Assembly (NCBI GenBank): GCA_035623825.1
Contig: DASPSR010000042.1
Coordinates: 11,669-75,668, forward strand
Direction: 5' to 3'
Length of the DNA stretch: 64,000 nt
Origin: Nitrospirota bacterium
Lineage (GTDB): Bacteria; Nitrospirota; UBA9217
In this document: piece by piece, positions 23,321 through 46,340 of the stretch
Layout: each line of letters begins with the position of its first letter
Position numbering within the stretch: position 1 is the stretch's first letter
The notes under the pieces: generated by a model
Database searches by the model: none
What the model was told of the DNA's origin: nothing
What the model saw: the letters and a program-made list of their open reading frames with translations, nothing else
Translations under genes and position numbers: made by a program

Positions 23321-23701
23321 TTATCCTTTGTTTCCCAATATCTGATTGACAATGTTCAGGAGGTCGGCGGTCTGAATGGGCTTTGGGATGTAGGCGTTGG
23401 CGCCTAAAGCGAGACCGCGCTTGCGGTCTTCCTCGGCGCCTTCGGTCGTAATGATGATGATCGGGATGGATTTGTGTGCGGGGTCGTTTCGAACCATTGA
23501 CACGAGCTTTAAGCCGTCCATGATTGGCATGTTGATATCTGTCAGGATGATGTCGAACTTCTGGGTCGAAAGTTTTTTGAGCGCGTCGATTCCATCATTG
23601 GCTTCAACGATTTTGCTCCCCGGAATACGCTTGAGCGCAAAGGAGATTAGCTGCCTCATCGTCGGGGAATCTTCAACCACCAGAAAATTATGCTCGGGCA
23701 T
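23321..23701 (-). CDS. cheY: CheY-like single-domain response regulator
   Basis: A 126-aa receiver domain with VVEDS...DIILTDINMPIMDG...IIIITTEG...KP. Confidence 0.88.
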   Translation of the reverse strand: MPEHNFLVVEDSPTMRQLISFALKRIPGSKIVEANDGIDALKKLSTQKFDIILTDINMPIMDGLKLVSMVRNDPAHKSIPIIIITTEGAEEDRKRGLALGANAYIPKPIQTADLLNIVNQILGNKG

Positions 23702-23713
23702 TTCCTACCTCCG

Positions 23714-24535
23714 TTATTTTTCTTTGAGCAGATCAAGAAAGCTCTGGATCGTGGTAAGCTTGCGCTCGGACTGAGAATAGAGTTTCGAAGAAAAGAGCGC
23801 CGTGGCGGCGTGTCCAGCAAGCATAGAGAACAGCTCATAGTCAACGTTCGAAAACTCGCTTTTCTGGACGAGGAGTTTGTAGATCACAATAGCCCCGATC
23901 ACGTGTTCCTTGATCTTGAGGGGGATGCAGACCAAGGGGTGAGTGTAGTCCACTCCCTTGAGATCTGTTGGATCTCCGTTCCGATAGTATGCCTCACCGC
24001 CTTTGACTGACTGCCCGATGACCCCATCCCCCAATTTGATACTTGATCGCGCCTCTGGTCCCATGCCTTCCTGGGCCACGATCGACAGCTCATTCGTCTT
24101 TTCATCGACGAGCATGATCGAGAACTCTTCCGCGCCAATCAGGTTCATGACGATCTCGAGGATGATCTTGAGCGATTCGTTGAAATCCAAGGTGGAATGG
24201 AGCTGGTAGCTCGCCACATAGAGGTTCGCGAGGTTATTGTTCTCTGCCTCCACCTCGACATATCGGTTGGCAAAATCCTTGTTCTCTTCTTCTACCTGGT
24301 GGTAACGGTCGAGAAGATTCTTGTTCTCCTCCTCAAGGAACTTCACCCTTTCTTCGAGGCCATGAAATTTGAAGTTCTCTTCCCTGCCTGAGAACTTGGC
24401 GACTTCTTCGAGTTGCGCGACCTTGTACCTGAGCTTTTCGTTCTCCTTCAGCAGTTCCTGAGTGAACTCTTCGCCCTTCCTGAAGACCTGGAGAAACTCT
24501 TCAACTTTTTTCGTGATCCCTATTTCCTTTTCCAT
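23714..24535 (-). CDS. coiled-coil + GAF domain protein
   Basis: The N-terminal heptad-rich region is LRYKVAQLEE...LEEENKNLLDRY. The C-terminal GAF-like block is IMNLIGAEEFSIMLVDEKTNELSIVAQEGMG...LVCIPLKIKEHVIGAIVIYKL. The start is taken at MEKEIG (24535), which has GAGGAGGG upstream. Confidence 0.7.
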   Translation of the reverse strand: MEKEIGITKKVEEFLQVFRKGEEFTQELLKENEKLRYKVAQLEEVAKFSGREENFKFHGLEERVKFLEEENKNLLDRYHQVEEENKDFANRYVEVEAENNNLANLYVASYQLHSTLDFNESLKIILEIVMNLIGAEEFSIMLVDEKTNELSIVAQEGMGPEARSSIKLGDGVIGQSVKGGEAYYRNGDPTDLKGVDYTHPLVCIPLKIKEHVIGAIVIYKLLVQKSEFSNVDYELFSMLAGHAATALFSSKLYSQSERKLTTIQSFLDLLKEK

Positions 24536-24729
24536 CAAACCCTCCTCGCATTTGCCGGGGTTACTGTCCCGCTCACACCGCATCTATCCGGAACGAAGAG
24601 AAAACTTCTCGTGCAACTGCATCCGTAGCTTGTTGCACCGACAGCGGAATAGGACAAGCCCTCATCTGCAAAAGAACCAGATAAGTTTTTTTATTATAGT
24701 CAAGTCCGCTGAAATTATCAAGGTCGATT

Positions 24730-25821
24730 TCACGATACAGAGCTCCCGCCGTCGCTTCTGCCCCAGCGGCATCGTTCGATTATTTCTTCCGCCATCCTGC
24801 TGAGCGGCAGTACCTTGTCCACAGCGCCGGTGCGGATTGCCTCCCGCGGCATGCCGAAAATGACCGCGCTTTCTTCGCTCTCGGCGAGGCACTGCCCTCT
24901 TTTACGTTTAATCGCATTAACTCCCTCGACGCCGTCTCTTCCCATCCCGGTAAGCACTACGCCGAGGGCAGCTGGGCCGCAGGCATCTGCGATGGAAACC
25001 ATCATGCGATCCGCAGACGGCACATACTTGTCCTCCGGGCTCCGGGCAACGAGCTCCGCAATGAACCCCGTGCGGTCTTTTTTTACAATCAGATGGTGGC
25101 CCCCGGGCGCTATGAGCACGGTTCCCGGACCGATGCGGTCGCCTGCTGAAGCCTCGCTCACCACAAGGGATGTCAGCTTGTTCAACCGCTCCGCGAAGCT
25201 CTTCGTAAAACCCGGAGGCATGTGCTGCGAAATCATAATGGCTGCGCCAAAGTCAGGTGGCAATGAGGTGAGAATTGCCTGAATCGCGGGCGGTCCTCCC
25301 GTAGACGACGCGATGGCCACCATTTCGATGGGGCTTCTCTCGACGCGCTCATCATCTTCTTTCCGCGCCGGAAAGGTAACTCGTTCCCGGGAAATGAGCG
25401 CGATCGTCGACTTGACCTTGTCCATCTCCAGGTTCAGGACGGCGTGAACCTTGGACACAAGCTCGTCCCGGATACTCTCGATACTCTTCGAGATCCGTGC
25501 CTCGGGCTTGGCAAGAAAATCCACAGCGCCAAGTTCCATGGCGCGGAAGACGCTGCGGCTGTCAGAGCGAGAGGAGAGCACGAGCACAGGCGTCGGGCAT
25601 TCCTTCATGAGCCACCGCAGGAAGGTAAACCCGTCCATGTTCGGCATTTCAAGATCAAGGGTAATCACGTCCGGCTGGAGCCGAAGCGTCTTCGCAATGG
25701 CATCCACTCCGTCATTTGCGCTCCCGATGACCTCAATCTCTTCATCGCTTGTGAGCATTCGGGTGATGACCGTTCGGTTGTATGCGGAATCGTCTACCAC
25801 CAGGGCCTTGATCTTGTCCAT
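24730..25821 (-). CDS. cheB: chemotaxis response regulator protein-glutamate methylesterase
   Basis: A receiver domain (VVDDSAYNR...VITLDLEMPNMDG) is followed by the CheB catalytic domain (IASSTGGPPAIQ...GMGRDG...). Confidence 0.92.
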   Translation of the reverse strand: MDKIKALVVDDSAYNRTVITRMLTSDEEIEVIGSANDGVDAIAKTLRLQPDVITLDLEMPNMDGFTFLRWLMKECPTPVLVLSSRSDSRSVFRAMELGAVDFLAKPEARISKSIESIRDELVSKVHAVLNLEMDKVKSTIALISRERVTFPARKEDDERVERSPIEMVAIASSTGGPPAIQAILTSLPPDFGAAIMISQHMPPGFTKSFAERLNKLTSLVVSEASAGDRIGPGTVLIAPGGHHLIVKKDRTGFIAELVARSPEDKYVPSADRMMVSIADACGPAALGVVLTGMGRDGVEGVNAIKRKRGQCLAESEESAVIFGMPREAIRTGAVDKVLPLSRMAEEIIERCRWGRSDGGSSVS

Positions 25822-25944
25822 TAAAGACTCTCCGTGATGAAGCTCGAATCATGAACGAACATCATATGAACGTCAAGTGCCGAGCACAAAGCTCCAAGCG
25901 TCCTGAAATGCGCGCCCTTGAGCTTGTGATTTATTGCAGATTCA

Positions 25945-26823
25945 CTATTTGAAACTTGGGATTCCAATTTTCGTCCTCACAGGCTTCTCGTACACCATAT
26001 CGTTCTTAAGCGTGCGCAGCGCAAAGGCGTTCGAGATATTAATCAGGGATTCCGAGTGCCCCAAGAGGAGATACCCGCCCTCACGGAGCTTTTCGTAAAA
26101 ACTCTCGATCACCTTTTTCTTCGCCTCCTTGTCGAAATAGATGATGACGTTCCGACAGAAGATGACATCCATGTTACTAATCAGGCTGGTTTTATGCGGG
26201 TCAAGAAGGTTCAGGTAGCTGAACGAAACGAGCTCGCGCACCCGGTCGGCGATGCGGTAATTCCCTTTTTCCTCTTCAATGAAGTATTTCGCCAGCATCT
26301 CCGGGCTTGTCACCCGGTGCGCGCTTTTTTTATAGACTCCCTTGCGTGCGGTATGTAGAACCCTCTGGTTGATGTCGCTTCCCAGGATCTCCACACGCCA
26401 GTCGCGCCACCAGTCCCCGGACTCGAACAGGAGGATAGCGATGGTATAAGGCTCCTCCCCGGTGGAGCATCCGGCGCTCCATATCCGAAGAACCTTGCGA
26501 TCAGCAAGTGTCTCACGTAAGTCGGGCAAGATTTCCTCGGAAAAGGCGCGGAGCTGCGGGCCCTCGCGGAAAAAATAGGTCTCATTCGTGGTGAGGTTGT
26601 CCACGAGAATGGCGAGTTCCTCTTCCCTCTTCCGGTCATAGCGGAGAAAATGGTAATACTCTTCGAAGCTCTTGAGCTGACGCTGCTCGAGCCGGCGCGT
26701 GAGCCTGCGCTCCAGCAGGAACTTGGAGCCGTCGTCAAAGTAAATGCCGCAGTATCCGTGGATGAACTCCCGGAGAAGCCTGAAGATGTCGTCAGGCAGC
26801 GGAATTGTCATTTCTTCTAGCAT
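25945..26823 (-). CDS. cheR: chemotaxis protein methyltransferase
   Basis: Motifs are TTNETYFFRE, RIWSAGCSTGEEPYTIA and DVIFCRNVIIYFD. Confidence 0.92.
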   Translation of the reverse strand: MLEEMTIPLPDDIFRLLREFIHGYCGIYFDDGSKFLLERRLTRRLEQRQLKSFEEYYHFLRYDRKREEELAILVDNLTTNETYFFREGPQLRAFSEEILPDLRETLADRKVLRIWSAGCSTGEEPYTIAILLFESGDWWRDWRVEILGSDINQRVLHTARKGVYKKSAHRVTSPEMLAKYFIEEEKGNYRIADRVRELVSFSYLNLLDPHKTSLISNMDVIFCRNVIIYFDKEAKKKVIESFYEKLREGGYLLLGHSESLINISNAFALRTLKNDMVYEKPVRTKIGIPSFK

Positions 26824-28818
26824 TTATCTCCTCAACGCATCCTTCGCGGCCTGTCGAACGGCCGTATCCGGATCTCCGTCGGCAATTCGCTCCAGCACAG
26901 GTTCGGCCGATGTGTCCTTTTTCTGCTTAACGATCTCTATCGCTGCCTTTCTCACGCTCCAGTGAGGATCGGACAATCGAGAAAAGATGATTTGCCGGAC
27001 AGAGGCCCAATGATAACCGGAAAGAGCCACGAGCACCGTTTTGCGCACCTCAGGATCGGCGTGGCTAGCGAGCCTGAGGAGCGGATCCAGCGCGAGCTCC
27101 GTTCTAAGCTTTCCCACGACATCCACGAGGGCAAGAAGAAAAATGTCCGTCGCTGTATCCAGATGCACCGCAAGAACCTCTCCGGCCTTCTCGCCGCCGA
27201 ACCTTCCCAGACCGCGTGCGGCAGCTGCCCGCACCCAGAGGTCGTCGTCCTCAAGGAGCGGGATGAGGATATCGGGAACTTCGGGGGCACTTGTATTGCC
27301 GAGCGCATCAGCGGCCATCATCCTGACCTCAGGGTCGTCATCGGTAACGGCGTGTATCAATGAACGTAGGGCCTTATCTCCCGAAATGTTGCCGAGAGCA
27401 CGGACAACGGCCTTTCTTACATCTGGCTCCTCGTCCTTGAGCGCAAAGGCAAGAGCATCGGCTGCCTTGTCGGTCGTGAATCTGCCGAGCAGGAGCGCGA
27501 TGTTCCTGCGCATGGGTGCGTCCCGAGACGTAAAGTCCTTTACAAGGTCATCGAGGGCGGACTCGTCGCCGATCTCCGCCAGTGCTCGTATTGCCGATTC
27601 CTGAACGCTCGGATATTCGTCTGTGAGCACATCAAGGAGTGGTTTGACGGCTTTCCGGCTCCTCAAGCGCCCGAGCGCCTCCGCTGCCGCGCTACGCACA
27701 TGACCGTTCTCGTCCATCAGTAGACCGATAAGGGGATCTTCAATATCCCGGCCCCCGGCGTCGCCGAGCACCCTCGCCACCGTCCTTCTCACGAGCGCAT
27801 TATCGTCGGAGAGATAACCCAGCAGAAAAGGCACACGGTCTCCGTCTATGTTCCTAAGCGCTTGTGCTATCGGTTCTTCCATGTCCTCATCTTTCAGAAG
27901 TGCAAGCAGTTTTTTGATGGAGGTCTCCCTCCCGGCCCACCCGAGCACCGCGACGGCCGACTTCTGGAGCTCTCCTGTGCTCGTGATGAGCATCTCTTCC
28001 AGAAGGTCTACTGCCCGGTCGTTCATGTTGGCACGAATAGTCCTTATCATGCGTTCCCGATCATCATGCGTGCTCTTTCGGTATATCGCAGTCAGTGCTA
28101 CCATAGCGACCTCGCGCACGATTCTAAGCGTATCGGCAAGGCCCGCGATGAGCGGCATAAGCGTATTGACATTACCAATCTTGCCGATTGATTCGATTAC
28201 CGGCTCTCTCAGGCTGCCCCGGCAGAGAGCTGCTATGAGCGGTCCGAGGGCTCGGTCGTCACCGATTTCTCCCAGAGCCTCGGCAGCGGCATAGTTAAGC
28301 CAGCTCTGGTGGTCTCGAGTCAGACAGGCAAGCAGCGGTTCGACTGCGCGGCGGTCCTTTATCTTGCCAAGCGCTTCGGCTGATGCCACACAGATATTAT
28401 CATCGGGGTCCTTTGCCAGTACCCCGATCAGGGCGGGTACGGCCCTTGAATCCCTGATATCTCCGAGGATGTCGACAATAAATTTGCGAACATCTGCATC
28501 CGGCGTTTCAAGGGATATAAGCAGGGCATCGACAGCTGGGGTGCCGATCTTGACCAGAGCTTCAATCGCCGAGTTCCGCGAACCGGCGTTGTCATCGGCG
28601 GAGAGGGACCGGATGAGCCCCTCGATGACATCATTGCTGCCGATTGCCACTAGTGCCTCGACTGCCGTCTTCCGGACTCGCCAGTCAGTATCACCCATGG
28701 CACTGAAGAGCAGGGGCACGGCATTCCGGCCTACGCGGCTAAGATCGACAGCCGCCTCCCGTCGCTCCTCCGCATCGCTATCCTGCAGTTTCTTCCTTAA
28801 AAATTCAAGATTCGGCAT
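26824..28818 (-). CDS. HEAT-repeat (PBS-lyase HEAT-like) protein, 664 aa
   Basis: The protein has about 20 tandem units of the form D.D..VR..AA.ALG.IGD..AV..L...L. It abuts the cheR start (no gap) and overlaps the cheW stop by 14 nt. Confidence 0.8.
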   Translation of the reverse strand: MPNLEFLRKKLQDSDAEERREAAVDLSRVGRNAVPLLFSAMGDTDWRVRKTAVEALVAIGSNDVIEGLIRSLSADDNAGSRNSAIEALVKIGTPAVDALLISLETPDADVRKFIVDILGDIRDSRAVPALIGVLAKDPDDNICVASAEALGKIKDRRAVEPLLACLTRDHQSWLNYAAAEALGEIGDDRALGPLIAALCRGSLREPVIESIGKIGNVNTLMPLIAGLADTLRIVREVAMVALTAIYRKSTHDDRERMIRTIRANMNDRAVDLLEEMLITSTGELQKSAVAVLGWAGRETSIKKLLALLKDEDMEEPIAQALRNIDGDRVPFLLGYLSDDNALVRRTVARVLGDAGGRDIEDPLIGLLMDENGHVRSAAAEALGRLRSRKAVKPLLDVLTDEYPSVQESAIRALAEIGDESALDDLVKDFTSRDAPMRRNIALLLGRFTTDKAADALAFALKDEEPDVRKAVVRALGNISGDKALRSLIHAVTDDDPEVRMMAADALGNTSAPEVPDILIPLLEDDDLWVRAAAARGLGRFGGEKAGEVLAVHLDTATDIFLLALVDVVGKLRTELALDPLLRLASHADPEVRKTVLVALSGYHWASVRQIIFSRLSDPHWSVRKAAIEIVKQKKDTSAEPVLERIADGDPDTAVRQAAKDALRR

Positions 28819-29332
28819 TGCCCGCCTCCGCCAGCGCTGAGCGCTCCTGCTGGCTTAAGATCTTGGTTATGTCAAGAAGAATTATAAGCCCGTCGGCCAC
28901 TTTCCCCATGCCGGTGATGAAATCGCCGCTCGCTCCCGTGGCCACTTCCGGCGCAGGTTCGATATCTTTTTTTGGAACATGGAGCACTTCGTTCACACCA
29001 TCCACGACCAGACCGATCAGACCTCTCCCGGTGCCATTAGCACCTTGGAGGGCGCCCCGCATGATCATCATGCGCATCTTCCGTGGATTGTCGTGAATCG
29101 TTGCCAGTGCAAAGCGCTTGCGCAAGTCAATGATAGGGATGATGGCTCCGCGCAAATTGATCACACCTTCTATAAACTTCGGCATCCGCGGAAGTGGTGT
29201 GATTCTGTGCGGGCGAACGATCTCGGTGATCGAATTGATCTCCAGCCCGTACACCTCCGGCCCTATGTGGAATGTAACGAGTTGAAGGGTTTCATCCGCA
29301 ACAACCGCCTGTTTTGCTTTCTTGTCGTTCAT
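28805..29332 (-). CDS. cheW: CheW coupling protein
   Basis: The sequence LVTFHIGPEVYGLEINSITEIVRP...EGVINLRGAIIPIIDLRKRF is the CheW pattern. Confidence 0.9.
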   Translation of the reverse strand: MNDKKAKQAVVADETLQLVTFHIGPEVYGLEINSITEIVRPHRITPLPRMPKFIEGVINLRGAIIPIIDLRKRFALATIHDNPRKMRMMIMRGALQGANGTGRGLIGLVVDGVNEVLHVPKKDIEPAPEVATGASGDFITGMGKVADGLIILLDITKILSQQERSALAEAGNAES

Positions 29333-29416: not shown

Positions 29417-31504
29417 TTACATCCTGAATTTCTGGATCTCATTCTTGAGCGAACCAGCCTGGTCGGCCATAATTTCCACGGCACTGTTGAGCCCAGCAGC
29501 CTGACTTGCATTTTCCTTGGCTATTTGCTTGATGCGCTCGATTGCCTTTACGATCATATTGCTGCCGGTCTGCACCTCACCTGTCGCTCTGTTCACCAGA
29601 GTGATCTTTGCGCTCATGTTCTCGACCGCCGCCGTGATGTCTTTCCCGGCCTTTGCCTGCCCTTCTGTTGATGTTCTGACAAATCGCGTGATCTCGCTCA
29701 TTTTCTCGGATGCCCGCGCAATCTGCTCACTGGCCGATTTCTGCTCATTAGCGGCCTTGGCGATCTGGAGGGTCATCCCGCTGATCCGTTCGACGGCTTC
29801 GCTTACCTGCCTGATGCTCCGCACTTGTTCTGCAGCCGCGCGGTTGATGCTCCTGCTCATGTCACGAGACTGGTCCGCCCGTTCCAGGATCTTTCGAAGT
29901 GTCTGACCCGCATCCTTGGAAAGCCGCATTCCCTCTTCCACGATAGCGACCCCTTCCTGCATGACTCCGGCGGCTACTTTGGATTCTTCCTGCACAGAAG
30001 CAATGAGATTGCCGATTTCCTGTGTTGATGCGGCCGTACGGTTCGATAGGTCGCGTATTTCCGCAGCCACCACCGAAAAACCCTTGCCGTGCTCTCCCGC
30101 CTGTGCCGCGAGGATCGCGGCATTCAGGGCAAGAAGGCCTGTCTGATCCGTAATATCCTCAATGACAGTAAGAATGCTCCCGATACTCTCGACGCGACCG
30201 ACGAGACGGTTCACCACATCGGCGGTCCGCCGCGCTGCTGCATCGATTCTGCCCATGCCCTCGATGGTCTTGTCGATAGAGTGCATGCCAAGTTGCTGGG
30301 CATCAGAGGCAACCGCCTCCGAAAGAGCAAGAGACTGTCTTGCGGTCTCCTCGACCTCTTTTACCGATGTGCTAATCTCGGACGATGACGCCGCTGTATC
30401 CGCTGCAGCAGCTGAAAGCAACTCGACGTTTCCAGCGATCTGCCGGATCGCGACGGACATCTGGGCTATAGCCGAAGTTGTTTCCTCGATAGATGCCGAA
30501 AGTTCGTGCATAGTCCGTGCCACCTCGTCCACAGAGGCGACCGTTTCGATCACGGATGAGGAGGTCTGCGTCGACGTTGCAAACAGGTCTTGAGCGGTTC
30601 CTGCGATTTCCTTGAGGGCAAAATGCATCTCGTTTACAGATGATGCCGCCTCGTCGACGGACTCGGCCTGCGTGCGGCTCCCGGTTGCTATCCGGGCGGA
30701 AGCTCCCTTGACTTCGGTTGAGACCGACTCCACATTCATCGCTGCCTGCTGTACATTTCCGATCATGCCCTTGAGTCCGGTGATCATGCGATTTAGTCCC
30801 CTCCCGAGCATCCCGAATTCGTCATGGGATGCGATGCGTACGCTCTGCGTGAGGTCTCCGGCGGCGATGTTCGATGCCACGGACACCGCTTCCTTCGTCG
30901 GCACAACGATCATCTTCCGCGCCATCATATAGACCATCGCAGCCAACGCGAGCACGATCGCAACGCTCGTTCCGAGCAGCAGGAATACTATTCCTCGGAC
31001 GTTCTGCTTCGCCCCAGTCCTCGAGAACCCCATCCAGACCGTGCCTAGCTTGGTTTCTCCGGTCTTGATGTCGACCGGGATTTCAAGGACATCGAACTGC
31101 GCCTTCACCTTGGCTGCAAGTGCGGGCGCGCTGTCCGATGTGTTCTGCAAGAGGAATTCATGCAGTTCGGGATTCTCCCGGTTGAAACTGGTTACGACAT
31201 TGTTCAAGACCGCGTCCGACGAATCCGTAACATAGGTGTAAAGCATATCCTGAGTTTTGACCGCATCGGCAACAAGGCTTTCAAGCTTTTTCATGTCTTT
31301 CTGGAGAATTGGGTCCGTTACTGCCTTGCCGAGGAACATTCCCAGATCCTTCCCGTGCGTCTCGATATGCCGGTACTGATCGGCTGACATGGTCCGGGCT
31401 ACAAAGGCCGTGCCCAGAACCATAAGCGCAAGAATAACACCGGTGATTACGACGGCGAGCTTTAAGCCCATGCTTGCCTCGATCTTTTCCTTCAGATCCA
31501 GCAT
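29417..31504 (-). CDS. methyl-accepting chemotaxis protein (2 TM, periplasmic sensor, HAMP, long signalling domain)
   Basis: Contains the HAMP sequence (AAGDLTQ) and the highly conserved MCP tip DQTGLLALNAAILAAQAGEHGKGFSVVAAEIRDLSNRTA. Confidence 0.92.
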   Translation of the reverse strand: MLDLKEKIEASMGLKLAVVITGVILALMVLGTAFVARTMSADQYRHIETHGKDLGMFLGKAVTDPILQKDMKKLESLVADAVKTQDMLYTYVTDSSDAVLNNVVTSFNRENPELHEFLLQNTSDSAPALAAKVKAQFDVLEIPVDIKTGETKLGTVWMGFSRTGAKQNVRGIVFLLLGTSVAIVLALAAMVYMMARKMIVVPTKEAVSVASNIAAGDLTQSVRIASHDEFGMLGRGLNRMITGLKGMIGNVQQAAMNVESVSTEVKGASARIATGSRTQAESVDEAASSVNEMHFALKEIAGTAQDLFATSTQTSSSVIETVASVDEVARTMHELSASIEETTSAIAQMSVAIRQIAGNVELLSAAAADTAASSSEISTSVKEVEETARQSLALSEAVASDAQQLGMHSIDKTIEGMGRIDAAARRTADVVNRLVGRVESIGSILTVIEDITDQTGLLALNAAILAAQAGEHGKGFSVVAAEIRDLSNRTAASTQEIGNLIASVQEESKVAAGVMQEGVAIVEEGMRLSKDAGQTLRKILERADQSRDMSRSINRAAAEQVRSIRQVSEAVERISGMTLQIAKAANEQKSASEQIARASEKMSEITRFVRTSTEGQAKAGKDITAAVENMSAKITLVNRATGEVQTGSNMIVKAIERIKQIAKENASQAAGLNSAVEIMADQAGSLKNEIQKFRM

Positions 31505-32097
31505 CAGATCCTCCCGAGTGCACGCACCGCATGAAGCGGGCCCGTCACGTTCCTCATCTCATGATTTCCGCGCGCATACCTCATGCGCTCTGGACGGCTG
31601 ACAATCCGAGATACTGACAGTCTGAGAAAGAGTATAAGAATGATAAAAATGGCGGGATACTCGAACAGGGCGCCCGCTGCATAGGCCGCAGGCTTGCTGT
31701 CGAGATCGGCGGGGTATACGGAGATGCGGTTTTCTCCCGGCCTTCTCTGGTCCAGAGAGATCGGAAGCGGCCCAATCGTGATGCGTTTGTCGGCGAGAAC
31801 TGGCTTTCCGATATGACCGAGCGATTTCCTGCTGATGTCGGTTACTGTCAGCTCCTGAGCATCGGGCCGAGACAGAAAATTTTGATCCATGATGTCTTTC
31901 CCGCTGAGGTTCGTCATCAGCAGATACGGCGCGGCACGCTCAGGTATGAGCTTAAAGAACTGTTCCCCATTGATCCGGGTATTTGCCAGAATATTCCGTG
32001 TCTCCGCGAAATACCGGCCAGTCCCGATCAGGCTCATGGTCACAAAAAGCCCCGAAACGGTCAGAAAAATGATGCTTTGTCGAACACCAATCTGCAT
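31504..32097 (-). CDS. hypothetical 2-TM protein with a roughly 125-aa periplasmic segment
   Basis: TM1 is IIFLTVSGLFVTMSLIG and TM2 is YPAIFIILILFLRL. I recognised no family. Its stop overlaps the ATG of the downstream MCP (TGATG at 31502-31506). Confidence 0.5.
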   Translation of the reverse strand: MQIGVRQSIIFLTVSGLFVTMSLIGTGRYFAETRNILANTRINGEQFFKLIPERAAPYLLMTNLSGKDIMDQNFLSRPDAQELTVTDISRKSLGHIGKPVLADKRITIGPLPISLDQRRPGENRISVYPADLDSKPAAYAAGALFEYPAIFIILILFLRLSVSRIVSRPERMRYARGNHEMRNVTGPLHAVRALGRI

Positions 32098-37187: not shown

Positions 37188-37200
37188 TTATGAGCCTCCT

Positions 37201-40276: not shown

Positions 40277-40292
40277 TGTTTATATCGGCGAT

Positions 40293-40955
40293 CTACGCCC
40301 CTACCGCTTTGTGCAAGTCCAGCAGGATGTAGAGCCTGTCGTCTTTTCGCGCTATCCCCTTTAGGAACTCTGCACCTTGTTCGATGGTCTCCGGTGCAGG
40401 ACGGACGGCGTCCGGTGAGATCCGTACCACCCCGGTCACCTGATCCACGAGAATTCCCGCGTTCTCGTCATCTGGGCTTATAATGATAATCCGCGCCTTC
40501 TCGTCCCTCACGGCGGGCGGAAGGCCTAGCCGCCTTCCGAGATCCAGTACTGGCAGGACCGTTCCCCGGATCGATGTCACCCCGATGACATGTGACGGTG
40601 AATTGGGGACCATGGTGAGCTCCCTGCTTTTCAGCACTTCCTGTACATCATCTACGGGCAGGACATACTCTTCACTGCCGAGGCGGAACGAGAGCATCTC
40701 GATCTCCTGTGTGTGAATTCCACTTGCCACTCCTTCTTCAGGCTCCGGCGTGTCCCTTCTTCCGATTTCTTCCACTGCGGCGTGTTTGGCCGCTTCCGGT
40801 TGTTTCCCGACAGCTGGAGATGACGGCACAGGGCTCGCGCTGCCAGAGGGCTTTTCCGTCTGGGCAGGTTGAGCAGGGGCCGTTTCTTCGGTCTCGAGTT
40901 TGTTTTGTGTGCGTGTCCACTCCGCTGCCTTTTTCCGCGCTGCCAAGATATCCAT
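40293..40955 (-). CDS. cheW: CheW coupling protein with an 80-aa low-complexity N-terminal extension
   Basis: The C-terminal core is MLSFRLGSEEYVLPVDDVQEVL...IGVTSIRGTVLPVLDLGRRLG. The N-terminus is P/A/E/S-rich. Confidence 0.85.
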   Translation of the reverse strand: MDILAARKKAAEWTRTQNKLETEETAPAQPAQTEKPSGSASPVPSSPAVGKQPEAAKHAAVEEIGRRDTPEPEEGVASGIHTQEIEMLSFRLGSEEYVLPVDDVQEVLKSRELTMVPNSPSHVIGVTSIRGTVLPVLDLGRRLGLPPAVRDEKARIIIISPDDENAGILVDQVTGVVRISPDAVRPAPETIEQGAEFLKGIARKDDRLYILLDLHKAVGA

Positions 40956-40984
40956 AGGTCGCTAACGCTCCTACCGAAAAAAAC

Positions 40985-41866
40985 TTACAGAGAGCAGAGG
41001 ACATGGGACATATGGGAAACCATGGCCCCTCTTCTCTTTGCCTCATGCCGAATGCCCTTTCCGTCCTTCGCCCGCCCTTCTCTCACTATGCTCTCGATGA
41101 TCTCCTGGTCTATTATCTTGAGGCCCTTGCCGAAACCTTCAACGAGCGCATTGCCCGCAATGGTGTTGATAATGCGCGGAACGCCTCCTGAACGCTCGAA
41201 CAAAGCCGTGTTCGCTTCTTCATCAAAGAGCAGCGTTTCCCTCCCCGCTACCCGGAGCCGGTGCTTCACGTACTCTCGTGTCTCGTCCTCGTCAAGCGGG
41301 CCCAGGTGATACTGCATTCCGATCCTCTGCCGAAGCGCCCTGTACTGGCGTCGGTCGAGCCGCTCCCCGAGCTCTGTCTGGCCGATAAGCAGGATCGCGA
41401 GAAGGTTGCGGTCATCGAGCTGGAAATTCGTAAGCAACCGCAGTTCCTCGAACGTGGCCTTGCCGGAGATAAGCTGCGCTTCGTCAATGATGACCACCGG
41501 TCGCTTCCCGGCCTCGAAGAACTCATACAGCTTTGCATTGATTCCCTCAATGATGCTGTGGCAATCCCGGCTCGAGCACTCCATCTCGAGGCCGAGGGCC
41601 ACGGTTCTCAGAAGATGTAGCGGCGAAAGCCGCGGGTTGATTATCAGCATCGGATGAAAGCTCCCGTCCAGCGAATCGATGAGCGCACGGGAAATCATCG
41701 TCTTGCCCGTACCGATATCGCCGGTCAACAGGGCAATGTCCTGGTCCTCTGCCGCAAGCTGTAGCCGGGCGAGGGCCTCGGCATGCTTGGCGCTCTGGTA
41801 GAAAAAACGCGGGTCAGGCGTCTTTTTGAACGGCTTTTCGCTCAGTCCGTAAAATTCTTCATACAT
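40985..41866 (-). CDS. ExeA/GspA/MshM-like AAA ATPase
   Basis: The N-terminus is YEEFYGLSEKPFKKTPDPRFFYQSAKHAEALARL. Walker A is GDIGTGKT and Walker B is VVIIDEAQ. Confidence 0.75.
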   Translation of the reverse strand: MYEEFYGLSEKPFKKTPDPRFFYQSAKHAEALARLQLAAEDQDIALLTGDIGTGKTMISRALIDSLDGSFHPMLIINPRLSPLHLLRTVALGLEMECSSRDCHSIIEGINAKLYEFFEAGKRPVVIIDEAQLISGKATFEELRLLTNFQLDDRNLLAILLIGQTELGERLDRRQYRALRQRIGMQYHLGPLDEDETREYVKHRLRVAGRETLLFDEEANTALFERSGGVPRIINTIAGNALVEGFGKGLKIIDQEIIESIVREGRAKDGKGIRHEAKRRGAMVSHMSHVLCSL

Positions 41867-41998
41867 AATTTAAGTCCCCGGGCCAGACGACAGGTACTAG
41901 ATTGAAGCTTTTCTTTTTGCCCGCTTATTCTGTCTGAAGTCCATTATCTGTTATCTGCCCTCGTTCCTTATTCCCCCGTCTTTGCCTCCGCCCGTGGT

Positions 41999-44008
41999 CT
42001 ACTGTCTGCTGACAACGACCGATCTTTTGAGAGCCCCTTCGATGAGTGATTCAACATCCAGCACGAGCACAACGCCGCGTCTGTCTCCCAGCTCCGTGGC
42101 GCCAGCAATGCCCGGTATCTCCGATATCCGCTTTCCAAGAGGCTTGATGACGATCTCCTGCTGGTCCCGGAGACCGTCAACCATGATCCCCAAGCGGCGC
42201 TCTGCGAGACCCACGAGGATGAGGTAGAATGAGTTGCTGCTGGGCTTCGGGGTCAGTTTGAACGCCTTCGTAAGCCGATAGAGCGGTATCGTGTCGCCAC
42301 GGATGGCCATCACCTCGCGTGTCTCCACGGTCTCTACCTGGTCATGCGTCGCCTGAATGATCTCGAGCACGGCGCTGAGAGGCACGGCAAACACCTCTCC
42401 GCCGGCCTCCACTACGAGTGCCTTGATGATGGCAAGGGTTATGGGAAGCGTGATGATGAATTTCGTTCCCATACCCGTCTCGGTATCGATATCAATCATA
42501 CCGGACAGCTTGGAGACATTCCGTTTCACCACGTCCAAACCCACACCACGGCCCGAGATTTCGGTTACGGTCTCGCGGGTGGTGAAGCCGGGAAGGAAAA
42601 TGATATCCAGAATCTCTTTGCGGTCGGTCTCAGGATCAAGGCCATGGTCCGAGGGGAGAACCGCTTTCTGCACTGCCTTGGCCAGGATATTCTTCGTTTC
42701 TATCCCCGCTCCGTCGTCTTCGACGGTGATCACCACATGGTTGCCCTTGGGGAATGCCGCGAGCTTTACCACACCGTGTTCCGGCTTTCCCTGCTGTTTC
42801 CGTATTTCGGGGAGTTCGATGCCGTGGTCAATGGCATTCCTTATGAGGTGCATGAGCGGGTCGGCAAGGTCCTCGATCATAAGCTTGTCGAGTTCGGTCT
42901 CTTCTCCCGAAAGATGGAGATCGATCTCCTTTCCCACTTCTTTCGCGTACTTTCTGACCATCTGTGAAAGGCGCGTAAAAATCTGGCCGATTGGAACCAT
43001 TCTAACCTCAAGGATCCCCTCCTGGAGGTCGTTCAGCTTCCTCTCCAGGCTGCGCTGCGCCTTGTGCAGATCCACGGAAAGTCCTGCGAATCCGTGCATG
43101 GATCTCAACTCACGCGCGATGCGACCGATGATGTTCTTGGTGAGGTGCATCTCACCGACTACGTTCATAAGGCCGTCAAGCTTGTAGATATCCACGCGGA
43201 CAGTATTGCTCACCGACTTGATCGCACCCGTTTCCGATACCGCCCGTTGCTCTTCCACCTTCCGCCCCTCGACGTACGTTATCGGGTCGAAGGACACCTT
43301 TGGCATATTGATCGCCGACATGAGCTCGTCACGTCCCATTGCGGTGCCGGCCACAATGGTAAATCCGATGCCGCCTGCGGCCGCGCCGGCCGTGGGCAGG
43401 GTGCAGATAATTTCAGCGTTCTTTTTGAGCACATCATTGAGGTTCTTGATGCCTTTTTCGAAATCGGTAAGCTCGAACAACGCCTTAATGGTGAAAAGGT
43501 TTTTGTGCTCCCTGATATTTTCCTTGAGTCGGTATTCTTCGTATTCCGTAAGGACTTGGAGGAGCCCGCGGTCAATTTCTATCTGATCCAGGATAGACCG
43601 GTCAGCGGCTGTGGAAGGCTTGGCTTTGAGGATTCCGTCGATGCGGTCAAGCGCGGCCGCTATGTCTTCCGGCTGCTCCTTGTTGCCCACTTGCTGCACA
43701 TGCCGTCCGAGCAGGGCCACGGTCTCGAATAGCACATCGAGGACGTCCCGGCTGAGCGCTGTTTTCCCGAGACGGACCTCGTCGAGGAGGAACTCCAGTT
43801 TGTGTGAGAGCTCTGAGGGGGCCTTGAGCCCGAACATCCCGGCGAGTCCCTTGAAGGAATGGATTGCGCGAAAAAGGCCGTTCACCAGATCCGGAGCCGA
43901 GCGCCCTGCGGCCTGTTCGGACTCAAGCGAGAGCATCGTCTGGTTGGCCGTTTCGAGAATGTCTTCCGCCTCGGCTAGAAAATCCTTTATAGAACGGTCT
44001 GATTTCAA
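41999..44008 (-). CDS. cheA: chemotaxis histidine kinase
   Basis: The Hpt motif is FRAIHSFKGLAGMFG. The HATPase block is DHGIE...GRGVGLDVV. A C-terminal CheW-like domain is present. Confidence 0.93.
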   Translation of the reverse strand: MKSDRSIKDFLAEAEDILETANQTMLSLESEQAAGRSAPDLVNGLFRAIHSFKGLAGMFGLKAPSELSHKLEFLLDEVRLGKTALSRDVLDVLFETVALLGRHVQQVGNKEQPEDIAAALDRIDGILKAKPSTAADRSILDQIEIDRGLLQVLTEYEEYRLKENIREHKNLFTIKALFELTDFEKGIKNLNDVLKKNAEIICTLPTAGAAAGGIGFTIVAGTAMGRDELMSAINMPKVSFDPITYVEGRKVEEQRAVSETGAIKSVSNTVRVDIYKLDGLMNVVGEMHLTKNIIGRIARELRSMHGFAGLSVDLHKAQRSLERKLNDLQEGILEVRMVPIGQIFTRLSQMVRKYAKEVGKEIDLHLSGEETELDKLMIEDLADPLMHLIRNAIDHGIELPEIRKQQGKPEHGVVKLAAFPKGNHVVITVEDDGAGIETKNILAKAVQKAVLPSDHGLDPETDRKEILDIIFLPGFTTRETVTEISGRGVGLDVVKRNVSKLSGMIDIDTETGMGTKFIITLPITLAIIKALVVEAGGEVFAVPLSAVLEIIQATHDQVETVETREVMAIRGDTIPLYRLTKAFKLTPKPSSNSFYLILVGLAERRLGIMVDGLRDQQEIVIKPLGKRISEIPGIAGATELGDRRGVVLVLDVESLIEGALKRSVVVSRQ

Positions 44009-44099
44009 TCGTCGCTACGCTCCATTGAAAAATGTAAAAAGAATATTAATATTTTGATTTCTGATCTTTACTATATAACCCGGCACGCAACGCCGCCGT

Positions 44100-44471
44100 C
44101 TATTCACCCTCCAACGCCTTGTTCACTGCAGCCATTAGATCTTCCTTCTTGAAAGGTTTAACTACATATCCGGTAGCCCCGAGCGCTATGCCCCTTTTTT
44201 GGTCTTCCTCGCTCTTTTCGGTGCTCACGATGATTAGGGGAATGTCCTTATAAGCGGCATTCGACTTTACAAAGCTGATCAACTCAAGGCCGTTGATGTC
44301 GGGCATATTGATGTCAGTGATTATCAGGTTGAAGCGTCGTGTGGGAAGGGTTTTGAGGGCTTCAAAGCCGTTCCCGGCTTCCACCGCAAAGAACTCTCCC
44401 ATTTCCTCGAGAGAGACCCGCATCATCGAGCGTATGGCCTTGGAATCCTCCACGATAAGGACGTTCTTCAT
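44100..44471 (-). CDS. cheY: CheY-like single-domain response regulator (intact copy)
   Basis: A 123-aa receiver domain with IVEDS...LIITDINMPDINGLE...IIVSTE...KPF. Confidence 0.9.
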   Translation of the reverse strand: MKNVLIVEDSKAIRSMMRVSLEEMGEFFAVEAGNGFEALKTLPTRRFNLIITDINMPDINGLELISFVKSNAAYKDIPLIIVSTEKSEEDQKRGIALGATGYVVKPFKKEDLMAAVNKALEGE

Positions 44472-44606
44472 TTTCGCTCCTTCTGAAGGTCGGCAGGTCT
44501 CTTTTCCAGCAGGCCCTTTTCCAAGACCATCCCCGCCTGATTGATGAATATCTCGAGAGTATCCACGCCTTTGATCGGTTTCTGATCGGGCAAGTTGTCT
44601 CCCTAT
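44289..44606. repeat. segmental duplication, copy A (5' half of intact cheY + relic 3' end of the DUF4388 gene)
   Basis: My hand alignment to 45017-45333 gives about 21 differences including one 1-nt indel over about 315 nt, roughly 93% identity. Confidence 0.85.
44468..44606 (-). pseudogene. relic 3' fragment of the DUF4388/GAF-like gene (last ~45 codons)
   Basis: It translates to NLPDQKPIKGVDTLEIFINQAGMVLEKGLLEKRPADLQKERK*. The intact gene ends NLPNQKPIKGVDTLEIFMNQAGMALEKALLEKRLADLQKERK*. It keeps the ATGA stop/start overlap with cheY. Confidence 0.75.
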
Positions 44607-44708
44607 GCGTTATCAACGCCCAAGATTCTCTTCATTTTGTTCCAAGCGCTATTACTGTTTTTTTATCGCATCCTTATGAATCCATCCTATGCTCGACTTG
44701 CAATATTT

Positions 44709-44738
44709 ATACTAAATTTATATTTTAAAATATGTCAA
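44709..44738 (-). promoter_or_regulatory. possible sigma70-like promoter inside the AT-rich insert, pointing at intact cheY-cheA
   Basis: The minus strand reads TTGACA (44733-44738), an 18-nt spacer, then TAGTAT (44709-44714). The AT-rich context makes chance matches likely. Confidence 0.2.
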
Positions 44739-45016
44739 TAAATCAATTTGTTACAGCGCGTGAAACGCTTTCCCCAGTGTTGGAAAATACTACACTGATG
44801 GAATCTTAACGGACAAAATTTGACAGAGCAGTCTTGGCTCTTTAAAAATCTCGGGGCGCTTTTCGAGAGAACAGCGGCTCCCGGTTGAGCTTGGCTAAAC
44901 TGGGTTCAGATATTTCTTGGAAGAGCAGGGAAACAGCTTCGTATTCAATCGCGATCACTTGGTGACGGTGTACGTCGTATGCGACGGAACAGGCGTTACA
45001 AAGCTGATTGGAAAAA

Positions 45017-45198
45017 GCCGTTGATGTCGGGCATATTGATGTCAGTGATGATCAGGTTGAAGCGGTTTGCGGGAAGAGTTTTGAGGGCTTCAAAGCCGTT
45101 CCCGGCTTCCACCGCAAAGAACTCTCCCGTTTCCTCGAGAGAGACCCGCATCATCGAGCGTATGGCCTCGAATCCTCCACGATAAAGACGTTCTTCAT
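45017..45198 (-). pseudogene. cheY fragment: frameshifted and 3'-truncated
   Basis: It starts with ATGA overlapping the stop of the upstream gene. A 1-nt deletion relative to copy A (GGCCTCGAATCC versus GGCCTTGGAATCC) gives MKNVFIVEDSRPYAR*. Homology ends after the DINMPDING codons. Confidence 0.8.
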
Positions 45199-45333
45199 TT
45201 TCGCTCCTTCTGGAGGTCGGCAAGTCTCTTTTCCAGCAGGGCCTTTTCCAGGGCCATCCCTGCCTGGTTCATGAATATCTCGAGAGTATCCACGCCTTTG
45301 ATCGGTTTCTGATTAGGCAAGTTGTCACCATAT
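45017..45333. repeat. segmental duplication, copy B (truncated cheY fragment + genuine 3' end of the DUF4388 gene)
   Basis: See copy A. The offset between copies is 727-728 nt. Confidence 0.85.
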
Positions 45334-46340
45334 ACAACCAGCGCTATCTTTCCGTCCACAATCAGCGGTATTGCGAGTACCATATCGGGCTTGACCCCGC
45401 CGAGCTCATTGACGAGGTAGTTGTTGCTCTCATTCGATGCAAGCTGACCGAGAAAACTTCGTCGGTTTTCGATCACCGTAAGGAACAGCGACGGTTGATT
45501 GAGCGGGATTTTGATATTGCGGACGACCTGGTCGGCGGACATGTTCTTGAGGTCTATCCCGAACTGGCCGAGACCTCGAACCTCGTCCTTCTTCACCATG
45601 AACAAGATAGCACGGTTGACAACCTCGCTCGCATACCGCAGGATGAGGAGCGTCACCTCTGCCGTTGCTGTGGGGAACCTTAGTTCGTCGAACATGGACT
45701 TGAGCACAGTGATCTCTCTGCGCGGTACTTCTGTCTCTATGCGGGTGAGGAACTCTTCTTTGGCCGGTTCGTAGCTGACGCGGTGAGTGGCCGGAGCTTT
45801 TGATGACGGGGCGGCTGTCTTGTGCATGCCTTTCCGCTTCTCATCGAGGATCCGCGTTCCCTCCATGAGGAGATACTCGGCACTGATGCCGGACTTGAGC
45901 AGGAACTCCTGGGTGTCTATCTCGAAATTGTCCTTTGAGGCTATATCTCCGAGCTCGAAGTTGAAAAAGCCCTCTTCCCACGCAAGCAGATCATAGATGA
46001 TCTCCTCAATCTGTTTACGGACGACGGTCTCGAGCGTTTGTGCGGGCACGACCCCCATCTCCACGAGGATCATGCCGAGTGGCTTGTCGACTTTCTCCTT
46101 TTGCAGCGCCAGCGCCTGGGACAGCGCCGTTTCGGTCAGCATTCCCTGCGAGACAAGGATATTTCCAAGGGAATCGCGGATACTGTCACTAGCGGCCTGA
46201 ATTACCTGGCCGCCCTTGAATACGACCATCCCTGTTCCCTTGCGGCTACGCACAAGGAGGGTGCCGGTTTTCTTACTCAGACTAATGATCTGGAAGATAT
46301 CGGGTAAAGCAAGATCTTCCAGCCTGCCAACAAGGCTCAT
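45195..46340 (-). CDS. DUF4388 (PatA-N-like) + tandem MshEN/T2SSE_N-like motifs + GAF-like C-terminal domain
   Basis: The N-terminus LEDLALPDIFQIISLSKKTGTLLV...VVFKGGQVIQA is the DUF4388 pattern. SLGNILVSQGMLTETALSQALALQ and PLGMILVEMGVVPAQTLETVVRKQ fit xLGxx(LVI)(LVI)xxG(LVI)(LVI)xxxxLxxxLxxQ. Confidence 0.7.
   Translation of the reverse strand: MSLVGRLEDLALPDIFQIISLSKKTGTLLVRSRKGTGMVVFKGGQVIQAASDSIRDSLGNILVSQGMLTETALSQALALQKEKVDKPLGMILVEMGVVPAQTLETVVRKQIEEIIYDLLAWEEGFFNFELGDIASKDNFEIDTQEFLLKSGISAEYLLMEGTRILDEKRKGMHKTAAPSSKAPATHRVSYEPAKEEFLTRIETEVPRREITVLKSMFDELRFPTATAEVTLLILRYASEVVNRAILFMVKKDEVRGLGQFGIDLKNMSADQVVRNIKIPLNQPSLFLTVIENRRSFLGQLASNESNNYLVNELGGVKPDMVLAIPLIVDGKIALVVYGDNLPNQKPIKGVDTLEIFMNQAGMALEKALLEKRLADLQKERK

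Follow-up and report, generated by a model that had tools for sequence, protein, structure and literature searches.

A predicted electron conduit inside a chemosensory gene cluster

The DNA analysed here, called the window throughout, is a 64-kb stretch of a Nitrospirota genome (GenBank assembly GCA_035623825.1, contig DASPSR010000042.1, positions 11,669 to 75,668 of the forward strand). Positions 23321-46340 of the window carry eighteen co-directional open reading frames (ORFs), all on the minus strand, in which the genes of a chemosensory (Che) pathway enclose two decahaem cytochromes, a predicted outer-membrane barrel, a solute-binding protein (SBP) and methyl-accepting chemotaxis proteins (MCPs). 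Gene contexts of the relatives suggest that conduit, SBP and sensor belong together as a unit. Domains were assigned by Pfam and NCBIfam searches of the cluster proteins. From the first gene to the last, the ORF table reads:

45195..46340, minus strand: PATAN/DUF4388 protein with an MshE-type cyclic di-GMP (c-di-GMP) motif and a weak GAF match (PF14332, 112.6 bits; NF053729, 46.6 bits, cutoff 38; GAF_2, 21 bits, below cutoff)
44100..44471, minus strand: CheY-like single-domain response regulator (PF00072, 95.3 bits)
41999..44008, minus strand: CheA with Hpt, dimerisation, HATPase and CheW-like domains and a TTG start (Pfam; NCBIfam CheA models under their equivalog cutoffs)
40985..41866, minus strand: AAA_22 P-loop ATPase, between cheA and cheW (PF13401, 74.9 bits; TIGR03015, 227 bits, cutoff 324.5)
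40293..40955, minus strand: CheW with an N-terminal extension of about 85 aa (PF01584, 130 bits, residues 86-217)
38253..40187, minus strand: surface decahaem lipoprotein, 644 aa, with 10 CxxCH motifs and an LGGC lipobox; NrfA/OcwA-like, an accessory part of the cassette
37201..38226, minus strand: MtrA/DmsE-family decahaem cytochrome, 341 aa, with a conserved lipobox (TIGR03508, 251.4 bits, cutoff 192.2)
35229..37187, minus strand: predicted MtrB-like outer-membrane barrel, 652 aa (PF11854, 27.7 bits, cutoff 23; Foldseek match to 6R2Q_B)
34292..35221, minus strand: orphan periplasmic SBP of family PF04392 (130.3 bits, cutoff 25.9)
32202..34295, minus strand: MCP1, with two transmembrane segments (TM), HAMP and an sCache_3_2-like periplasmic domain (25.3 bits, just under the cutoff of 28.4); overlaps the SBP gene by 4 nt
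31504..32097, minus strand: remnant of a third ('middle') MCP, 197 aa, consisting of TM1, periplasmic domain and TM2 only (no Pfam match)
29417..31504, minus strand: MCP2, with two TM, HAMP and a periplasmic domain without family match (Pfam)
28805..29332, minus strand: second CheW (PF01584, 123.5 bits)
26824..28818, minus strand: HEAT-repeat protein, 664 aa, between cheW and cheR (HEAT_2, 366 bits)
25945..26823, minus strand: CheR methyltransferase (Pfam)
24730..25821, minus strand: CheB methylesterase with receiver domain (Pfam)
23714..24583, minus strand: GAF-domain protein (GAF_3, 52.9 bits)
23321..23701, minus strand: second CheY-like response regulator, the last gene (PF00072, 99.8 bits)

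CheA, CheW, MCP, CheR, CheB and CheY are all present, which makes this a Che pathway. An earlier reading of the same DNA, made from its letters alone (the original prediction), had listed the same eighteen genes, and its coordinates and domains were borne out. Its junction lengths also proved exact on re-measurement. In the conduit part, the surface cytochrome gene begins 105 nt after cheW, the gaps within the cytochrome/barrel trio are 26 and 13 nt, and the SBP gene follows the barrel gene after 7 nt. In the receptor part, genes overlap between SBP and MCP1 (-4 nt), the 197-aa ORF and MCP2 (-1 nt) and cheW and the HEAT gene (-14 nt), and HEAT and cheR abut (0 nt). The cheW-to-cytochrome spacer is about 70 per cent alignable with close relatives and no element was seen in it. 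Flagellar, pilus, cheZ, cheC and cheD genes are absent from the cluster and from the scanned ORFs of the window, flanks included, as had been claimed. Neither cheV nor any other sign of a motor output turned up among them.

An MtrAB-like module with a different cap

The original prediction called the cytochrome/porin trio MtrCAB-like, which held for two of its three proteins. The 341-aa decahaem appears from its sequence to be a true MtrA/DmsE relative: besides passing the TIGR03508 cutoff, it matched chain A of PDB entry 6R2Q, the MtrA of the Mtr complex, with E = 1.2e-42 over residues 53-332. It has nine CxxCH motifs and one CX3CH (CLKACH), the latter being the first haem motif. Against NF041028, the GSU2203 family of Geobacter, it scored 245.1 bits with a cutoff of 325, and it is probably a close relative of that family rather than a member. 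Of 60 distinct homologues, 57 keep its lipobox (..FFAAGC/AALKESRP..). Unlike Shewanella MtrA, which is soluble in the periplasm, the family found here may thus be lipid-anchored.

Matches of the 652-aa protein to sequence models were partial. The PF11854 match is restricted to residues 289-448, and the score against the MtrB/PioB subfamily model TIGR03509 (30.9 bits) is far under the cutoff of 240. The protein is closer to NF041027, the GSU2204 family, with 120.1 bits over residues 8-443 only (cutoff 350). That family is described as a CXXCH-containing (seleno)protein, and the barrel of the window, unlike it, has no CxxCH, which places it outside the family. A profile search of PDB sequences returned no match at E <= 1. 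An AlphaFold2 model built from 70 homologues (pLDDT 79.7) contained 26 long strands, and its top Foldseek match was 6R2Q_B, MtrB, with E = 9.8e-17 and TM 0.42; the next match had E = 1.6e-6. We therefore describe the protein as a predicted 26-strand barrel, most like MtrB. The barrel gene adjoins a decahaem gene in all loci read.

The surface decahaem is where the MtrC likeness failed. With ten haem motifs and a lipoprotein signal it shares two general features of MtrC, OmcA and MtrF, though neither sequence nor fold is similar. All ten CxxCH motifs are kept in 56 homologues. No OmcA/MtrC match was found in NCBIfam, and cytochrome c554 was the sole match among PDB sequences. PF22113 scored 53.4 bits, with the best stretch confined to residues 43-132. 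A predicted model of modest confidence (pLDDT 65.8) gave nothing at E < 1 in Foldseek. The modelled fold appears nearest to NrfA/OcwA and not MtrC-like. Given the MtrA and MtrB likeness and the non-MtrC surface cytochrome, the module is MtrAB-like with a different cap.

The binding protein and the receptors

The SBP has relatives in PDB entries 3LKV, 3LFT and 6HNI. Its gene directly follows the barrel gene in nearly all 90 loci. ABC permease or ATPase genes were found beside the SBP neither in the window cluster nor beside the cassette in the gene tables of relatives that were inspected; the MlaE/ABC_tran genes upstream in two loci (L089, L092) belong to an Mla system. Judged by these contexts, the SBP behaves as a sensor-associated orphan and probably as a core partner of the conduit and MCP1. 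Among its conserved residues are the aromatic and charged Y37, Y38, F45, W73, Y91, Y114, R78, E102 and D161. We ruled out that the SBP is itself a redox protein, because the mature chain lacks Cys and its His residues are not conserved.

Although the sCache_3_2 score of MCP1 is just under the cutoff, MCPs at the same position in two relatives pass it (L059, 44.2 bits; L084, 42.7 bits). The periplasmic domains of MCP1 and of the haem kinase described below had no match among the sequences of solved structures. The 197-aa ORF had been taken for a separate two-TM component of the system. This had to be abandoned: residues 1-169 are 50 per cent identical to the N-terminus of an intact 674-aa middle MCP in locus L003, and the ORF is what is left of a third MCP, its N-terminal part.

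The arrangement is conserved among relatives

A database search returned over 240 relatives of the barrel, and a full HMMER scan gave 463 representatives at 50 per cent clustering. We read gene contexts for 92 loci (cited by L numbers; barrel proteins by P numbers): seven of barrel homologues, one from a genome scan, eighty metagenome loci found by barrel alignment, and four from a second walk through the barrel family. ORFs of relatives were labelled by BLASTP against the window proteins. The genome-contig search, which used a single barrel sequence as query, found one locus, in a Nitrospirota metagenome-assembled genome (MAG). The named homologues are all from Nitrospirota except one MAG protein labelled Betaproteobacteria.

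Twenty-six distinct contigs with barrel identities of 37-77 per cent, the named ones all Nitrospirota, extend far enough upstream to be informative. In every one (26/26), the genes for PATAN, CheY, CheA, AAA_22 and CheW lie directly 5' of the cytochrome gene or genes, and LolA and YajQ genes usually precede the PATAN gene, which opens the cluster in every long relative. Where the sequence reaches far enough downstream, the barrel gene is followed by genes for SBP, two to four MCPs, CheW, HEAT, CheR and CheB. The cassette thus sits between two cheW genes of one backbone in all informative relatives. Junctions are conserved as well. In the conduit part of the relatives, 12-14 nt separate the periplasmic cytochrome from the barrel, 8-32 nt the barrel from the SBP, and the step from SBP to MCP is -4 or 14-16 nt. 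In the backbone, cheW overlaps the HEAT gene by 14 nt (8 nt in L008), and HEAT to cheR is 0 or -4 nt; the -14 and 0 nt junctions are shared by L001 and L006, and the -14 nt overlap also occurs in L003 and L004. The che and conduit order and the tight junctions first described in the window thus recur in every related contig long enough. Across these che-embedded loci CheA is 61-89 per cent identical, the MtrA-like protein 68-87 per cent, and the barrel down to 37 per cent.

Three parts of the arrangement vary. The PATAN-cheY junction is not uniform, as described below, the number of MCPs differs between che-embedded loci, and the surface cytochrome is missing in three relatives (L006, L035 and L036), which keep the rest of the cassette. 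The original prediction treated the trio as the unit. It was right that the trio is integral to the che array; the conserved unit, however, is the decahaem, the barrel, the PF04392 SBP and a membrane sensor.

A recent horizontal transfer of the trio was considered and ruled out, on GC content like that of the flanks and on housekeeping flanks with conserved LolA-YajQ synteny.

Some relatives have peculiarities of their own. In L008 (53 per cent identity; regions 7018-9887 and 15125-17899) the surface and periplasmic cytochrome genes look fragmented, either by decay or through assembly error, and its 924-aa middle MCP bears a PhnD-like domain (PF12974) of the same family as the second SBP of the kinase-type cassettes described below. 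In L025 the SBP-MCP pair is tandemly doubled (SBP-MCP-SBP-MCP). One 996-aa protein, P0179, matches the barrel profile over residues 380-978 and could be a cytochrome-barrel fusion.

The cassette also occurs outside che clusters

Loci with barrel identities of 24-35 per cent have no che genes within 10 kb and lie in unrelated housekeeping contexts. The decahaem, barrel and PF04392 SBP are kept there, and a membrane sensor stands next to the cassette in 26 of the 29 informative non-che loci. The non-che loci with a sensor or with too little sequence divide as follows:

MCP type, 13 loci: an MCP follows the SBP, and the two genes often overlap; sCache_3_2 significant in both that were scanned (L059, L084)
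Kinase type, 13 loci: a PhnD-like second SBP, followed by a HAMP histidine kinase where the contig allows (10 loci)
Undecided, 7 loci: contig too short to judge

The histidine kinases inspected all have a CxxCH at residue 89, in a periplasmic loop (8/8). In L069 (7928-10313) the decahaem, barrel, SBP and MCP are followed by a 163-aa tetrahaem cytochrome and a second MCP, which has a Geobacter-type Mcp40H-20 sensor domain with a CxxCH at residue 165. These kinases and the haem MCP suggest that part of the family couples the conduit to haem-based periplasmic sensors.

The second walk started from a CxxCH-bearing barrel, P0247, and reached Desulfuromonas; no Geobacter sequence was reached, and none of the barrels found passes the GSU2204 cutoff. 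Barrels of this Desulfuromonadota clade (L089-L092, P0237-P0276) share with the GSU2204 family a CxxCH, which lies near residue 200. An MCP follows the SBP in two of its four loci, both of which have an Rrf2 regulator upstream. L091, from a Desulfuromonas MAG, reads decahaem, CxxCH-barrel, SBP, MCP. L089 comes from the cultured Desulfuromonas versatilis (AP024355.1, 2.305-2.327 Mb).

Compared with the stand-alone MCP type in its four longest loci, the che-embedded cassette is 45-51 per cent (SBP) and 40-43 per cent (MCP) identical; compared with the kinase type, its SBP is 38-43 per cent identical. On these identities it appears closer to the MCP type than to the kinase type. Taken together, the gene contexts point to conduit, binding protein and sensor as the stable evolutionary unit. 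In the lineage of the window this unit has come to lie within a che operon, along with additional MCPs and, in most cases, a surface cytochrome.

Comparison with known systems

By domain content and gene order the che backbone belongs to an established non-flagellar type and is similar to Geobacter Che5/Esn and Myxococcus Che7. The annotation of G. sulfurreducens runs GSU2224 (response regulator-like), GSU2223 (CheY), GSU2222 (CheA, EsnC), GSU2221 ('ATPase') and GSU2220 (CheW, EsnB) (PMC5585712, PMC8242959). Compared by domain content and published annotation, this is the order of the first five genes in the window, PATAN, CheY, CheA, AAA_22 and CheW; the PATAN/DUF4388 protein is a candidate output or effector protein. 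We take the later Geobacter genes to be CheW, HEAT, CheR, CheB, GAF and CheY. Like the Che pathway of the window, Che5/Esn is non-flagellar, and it is tied to electrode colonisation and matrix. Its esnB, GSU2221 and esnC (CheW, ATPase and CheA) are needed for electrode colonisation, and the esn genes are dispensable for Fe(III) oxide reduction (PMC5585712). The Geobacter beta-group cluster, which is also present in Myxococcus and affects the extracellular matrix, was reported to be without mcp genes (PMC2577667). No cytochrome or porin genes are reported inside it either, whereas the window cluster has two intact MCPs and a remnant and its relatives two to four. In the Che7 system of Myxococcus xanthus, the single-domain CheY7 acts by binding a HEAT-repeat protein, Cpc7 (PMC11514114, PMC9040617). 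On domain content, the resemblance is in the large HEAT-repeat protein beside cheR and cheB in a chemosensory cluster. We know of no cytochrome, porin or binding protein in Che7.

The nearest named families of the conduit, GSU2203 and GSU2204, have locus tags about ten genes from the Geobacter Che5 cluster. Judged from locus-tag proximity and annotation only, this is a lead and nothing firmer; our literature search found no papers on GSU2205-2211. The Desulfuromonas cassette, unlike that of the window, is not near che genes.

With Shewanella MtrCAB (6R2Q) the window shares the C-A-B gene order, a decahaem lipoprotein gene lying upstream of genes for an MtrA-like protein and a barrel of about 650 aa and 26 predicted strands. 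It differs in the conserved lipobox and CX3CH of the MtrA-like protein, in the NrfA/OcwA-like cap, in the SBP and sensor that nearly always follow, and in the che operon setting. The cassettes outside che clusters, and the three che-embedded ones without a surface cytochrome, consist of one decahaem and a barrel only, which recalls PioAB and MtoAB; we know of no PioAB or MtoAB locus in which a binding protein and a sensor are described as obligatory parts. The pairing of an orphan SBP with a membrane sensor recalls SBP-dependent sensors such as TorT-TorS or MBP-Tar; TorT-TorS controls a reductase for a soluble substrate, not an outer-membrane conduit. Periplasmic haem-c receptors include the Geobacter MCPs GSU0582 and GSU0935 and Desulfovibrio DcrA. 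The kinase-type cassettes with their conserved CxxCH and the L069 MCP with its Mcp40H-20 domain resemble them; the window MCPs, which have no haem motif, do not. To our knowledge, the haem-c receptors stand alone, without an outer-membrane conduit.

A functional parallel is the congregation and energy taxis of Shewanella towards insoluble electron acceptors, which needs mtrBC/omcA, a Cache MCP (SO_2240) and CheA-3, the same three kinds of part (PMC5789149). There, however, the genes lie apart, the proposed sensing is indirect, via proton-motive force or 'self-sensing', and the output is flagellar.

The original prediction was unaware of any described MtrCAB-type conduit internal to a che operon. 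A full-text literature search, in which subscription journals are thinly covered, likewise yielded no published description of a porin-cytochrome conduit in a che operon or of a conduit, SBP and sensor cassette. The largest mtrCAB survey (PMC8805035) contains no mention of histidine kinase, methyl-accepting, substrate-binding, sensor, two-component or Nitrospir-. The parts all come from known families; as far as this search reaches, their arrangement is new.

What the conduit may do in the cluster

We tentatively favour the view that a trans-outer-membrane sensor of redox conditions or surfaces has the conduit as its input end and feeds a pathway like Geobacter Che5/Esn and Myxococcus Che7. 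A lipid-anchored MtrA-type decahaem would thread the 26-strand MtrB-like barrel, capped on the outside in most genomes by the NrfA/OcwA-like decahaem lipoprotein. So built, the conduit would span the outer membrane and equilibrate with external redox material such as mineral or electrode-like surfaces, humics, metal chelates or partner cells. The co-translated PF04392 SBP and the Cache-type MCP1, and probably MCP2, would read its periplasmic state; the SBP might dock on the conduit, or it might bind a redox-active ligand, small and aromatic, in a state determined by the conduit. The MCPs would control CheA via the two CheW proteins, with adaptation by CheR and CheB, and phospho-CheY would act on the HEAT, PATAN/c-di-GMP-binding, GAF and AAA_22 proteins. 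What changes would be behaviour at surfaces (attachment, matrix, pili) and not the rotation of flagella. In this scheme we infer the electron flow through the conduit, the conduit-SBP-MCP contacts, the nature of the signal and the output of the pathway; the step from the periplasmic end of the wire to a haem-free SBP, which we infer purely, is the weakest.

Several results support a sensory role: the position of the cassette among receptor and CheW genes, the conserved coupling, and the occurrence of three kinds of sensor, two of them haem-bearing. The absence of any quinol dehydrogenase, periplasmic shuttle cytochrome or ABC permease/ATPase gene from the window cluster fits as well. The Shewanella and Geobacter precedents given above, and the lack of an mcp gene in cis in Geobacter beta-group clusters, point the same way. 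The recurrence of the wire, SBP and sensor cassette in other bacteria is suggestive, though no proof, of a cell-surface redox sensor. Other results weigh against this role. Three non-che loci have no adjacent sensor; two of them retain the SBP (L092 and L089, the latter from the cultured D. versatilis), and L067 has neither SBP nor sensor. All loci were found by barrel-seeded searches, so that the survey covers only those Nitrospirota che backbones that carry the cassette. The genome could carry a quinol dehydrogenase gene at another place. Neither MCP1 nor MCP2 has a CxxCH, a claim of the original prediction that a motif search upheld, the mature SBP has no Cys, and none of its His residues is conserved at >= 90 per cent across homologues, so the chemistry by which redox state would be read is not visible. 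Sensors beside the respiratory genes they regulate, such as TorT/TorS, are common. Finally, the ligands of PF04392 proteins with solved structures are L-Trp, L-Tyr or L-Phe (PMC10443332), so the SBP-MCP pair could be an ordinary small-molecule chemoreceptor.

In the main competitor, the conduit would serve respiration or lithotrophy, by reducing metal oxides, oxidising Fe(II) or passing electrons between species, and would be under the dedicated control of the SBP, the MCP or kinase and the Che pathway; the sensors would take a periplasmic cue and then govern how the conduit is expressed, assembled or placed, or steer or attach the cell to sites where the conduit is of use. MtrA and MtrB relatives are known as respiratory conduits, the MtrA-like protein passes the DmsE-family cutoff, and TorT/TorS is a precedent for an SBP and sensor kinase next to regulated respiratory genes. 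Mutants of Geobacter Che5/Esn are altered in matrix expression and electrode colonisation (PMC2577667, PMC5585712), and in Geobacter, where GSU2203 and GSU2204 are related to the conduit, both are induced when iron-oxide minerals are present (PMC4070692). Yet we think this unlikely, if far from negligible. The kinase-type loci with flanks examined have no adjacent DNA-binding response regulator (in L076 amtB-glnK-glnD-glnA come next, and L068 has a hybrid kinase), and no cluster inspected includes a quinol dehydrogenase or shuttle cytochrome. A place between cheW and the MCPs, with translational coupling to a receptor, is an unexpected spot for a target of regulation, and three relatives drop the surface cytochrome and keep all else. 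The comparative data thus favour the conduit as sensory input over a pathway that controls the conduit, without deciding between them.

Less probable still, and in our judgement improbable, is an ordinary ligand sensor. Here the SBP-MCP or SBP-kinase pair would detect a small aromatic compound or a metal chelate, and the MtrAB-like pair would serve that chemistry, for instance by changing the redox state of a shuttle or chelate on the cell surface and so giving rise to its sensed form in the periplasm, rather than report an external potential. The aromatic amino acids bound in PF04392 structures (PMC10443332), the conserved aromatic and charged residues of the SBP, and the PhnD-like second SBP of kinase-type cassettes and its counterpart fused to the L008 MCP all speak for it, as does the usual role of Cache domains in sensing small molecules. 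It would leave unexplained, however, why the kinases conserve a periplasmic haem motif, no ligand can be named, and MtrA fills the lumen of MtrB in the 6R2Q structure, with no obvious path for a solute. The original prediction had also offered that the cytochrome and porin genes are a passenger insertion. Since the cassette also stands alone elsewhere, a che cluster did capture it at some point, and base composition, with GC content of the trio similar to the flanks, is uninformative either way. A neutral passenger would nevertheless hardly keep an identical position in all 26 contigs, with its translational coupling and a well-conserved MtrA-like protein, while CheA diverges to 61 and the barrel to 37 per cent identity, and outside che clusters the cassette is again joined to a sensor in 26 of 29 loci. 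The shared order and coupling across divergent relatives led us to reject it, and we give it next to no weight.

Returning to the conduit as sensory input, a broader version, which we hold with yet more caution, is that MtrAB-type wires have been recruited as receptors. The four-part cassette would read the redox state of solids, shuttles or neighbour cells and pass it to a Che pathway or a haem kinase. It is conceivable, on the same tentative footing, that the che route is taken in Nitrospirota and some Desulfuromonas, and that this is a widespread, previously unrecognised class of trans-envelope receptor, an 'electroreceptor'. It would follow a logic like that of RcsF/OMP or of FecA-type signalling at the cell surface, except that electrons carry the signal, and should the wire turn out to be a receptor, the mechanism would be of a new kind. 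The question bears on how bacteria locate and settle on insoluble electron acceptors, donors or electrically connected partners. Shewanella and Geobacter need chemosensory genes as well as conduits, but the two are unlinked there, and the sensing step is only inferred; here they are linked in an operon, and surface sensing by outer-membrane cytochromes becomes a defined, testable four-protein module. Genetics is feasible: a cultured Desulfuromonas has the conduit and SBP, and Geobacter encodes the related GSU2203/GSU2204 family. For metagenomics, the cassette advises caution, as MtrAB-like genes may not always signal respiratory metal reduction or oxidation. If the sensor role is real, the module is also a candidate part for bioelectronic sensing.

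Transcription signals and genomic surroundings

The following sites were found in and around the cluster:

46370..46397, minus strand: promoter candidate TTGCTT-N16-TATAAT upstream of the first gene, a consensus match only, with 3/6 positions of the -35
44286..45333, minus strand: direct duplication of about 320 nt (44286-44606 and 45014-45333, 92-95 per cent identical) flanking an AT-rich insert of about 400 nt (44607-45013)
44709..44738, minus strand: strong promoter-like match TTGACA-18-TAGTAT within the AT-rich insert
24693..24721, minus strand: TTGATA-17-TATAAT, an 11/12 match just inside the cheB 3' end, beside the cheB-GAF gap; the best sigma-70-like match of the region
23243..23280, minus strand: intrinsic-terminator-like hairpin with a 9-bp stem and a 12-nt loop, then a T-run, TTTTTATT

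The first and last of these had been proposed in the original prediction, and both are present on direct reading. Neither was listed by our scans, the promoter because of its weak -35 and the hairpin because the terminator scan is limited to loops of 8 nt. The site at 24721-24693 may give the GAF and last CheY genes a promoter of their own. Because there are such internal sites, and because the counts of promoter-like sites in the cluster show no clear excess over shuffled sequence, a single transcription unit for the whole cluster is plausible from its layout and no firmer than that.

The 'cheY fragment and AT-rich insert' described earlier turned out to be the duplication listed above. The duplicated stretch is the 3' end of the PATAN gene plus the 5' end of cheY. 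The cheY fragment also occurs in the close relatives L001, L011 and L012, and in more distant relatives a 4-nt overlap of PATAN and cheY takes the place of duplication and insert.

The cluster is flanked upstream by FtsK, LolA and YajQ genes and downstream by genes for RlmN, a MinD-like ATPase and folate enzymes and by a full Wood-Ljungdahl block (5840-19453, minus strand). The block encodes ACS/CODH beta, two CdhD-type subunits, a pterin-binding methyltransferase, MetF-/MetV-like methylenetetrahydrofolate reductases (MTHFR) and a 700-aa HdrA/MvhD-like fusion, and it marks the host as an anaerobe using the acetyl-CoA pathway. Further along, at 531-3203 (minus strand), an in-frame TGA (2163-2165) divides the gene of a formate-dehydrogenase-like molybdopterin oxidoreductase into two ORFs. 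The context of this TGA, CARL-[TGA]-HSATVAGL, is that of a classic selenocysteine site, and NuoF- and NuoE-like genes follow; the two ORFs are therefore probably one selenoprotein gene and not a pseudogene. An Rfam search of the window found a single tRNA and no other RNA element. This tRNA gene (60066-60147, minus strand) and, at the window edge, a LuxR/GerE-type response regulator with a HisKA_3 kinase fragment (62565-63810, minus strand) have no evident link to the cluster.

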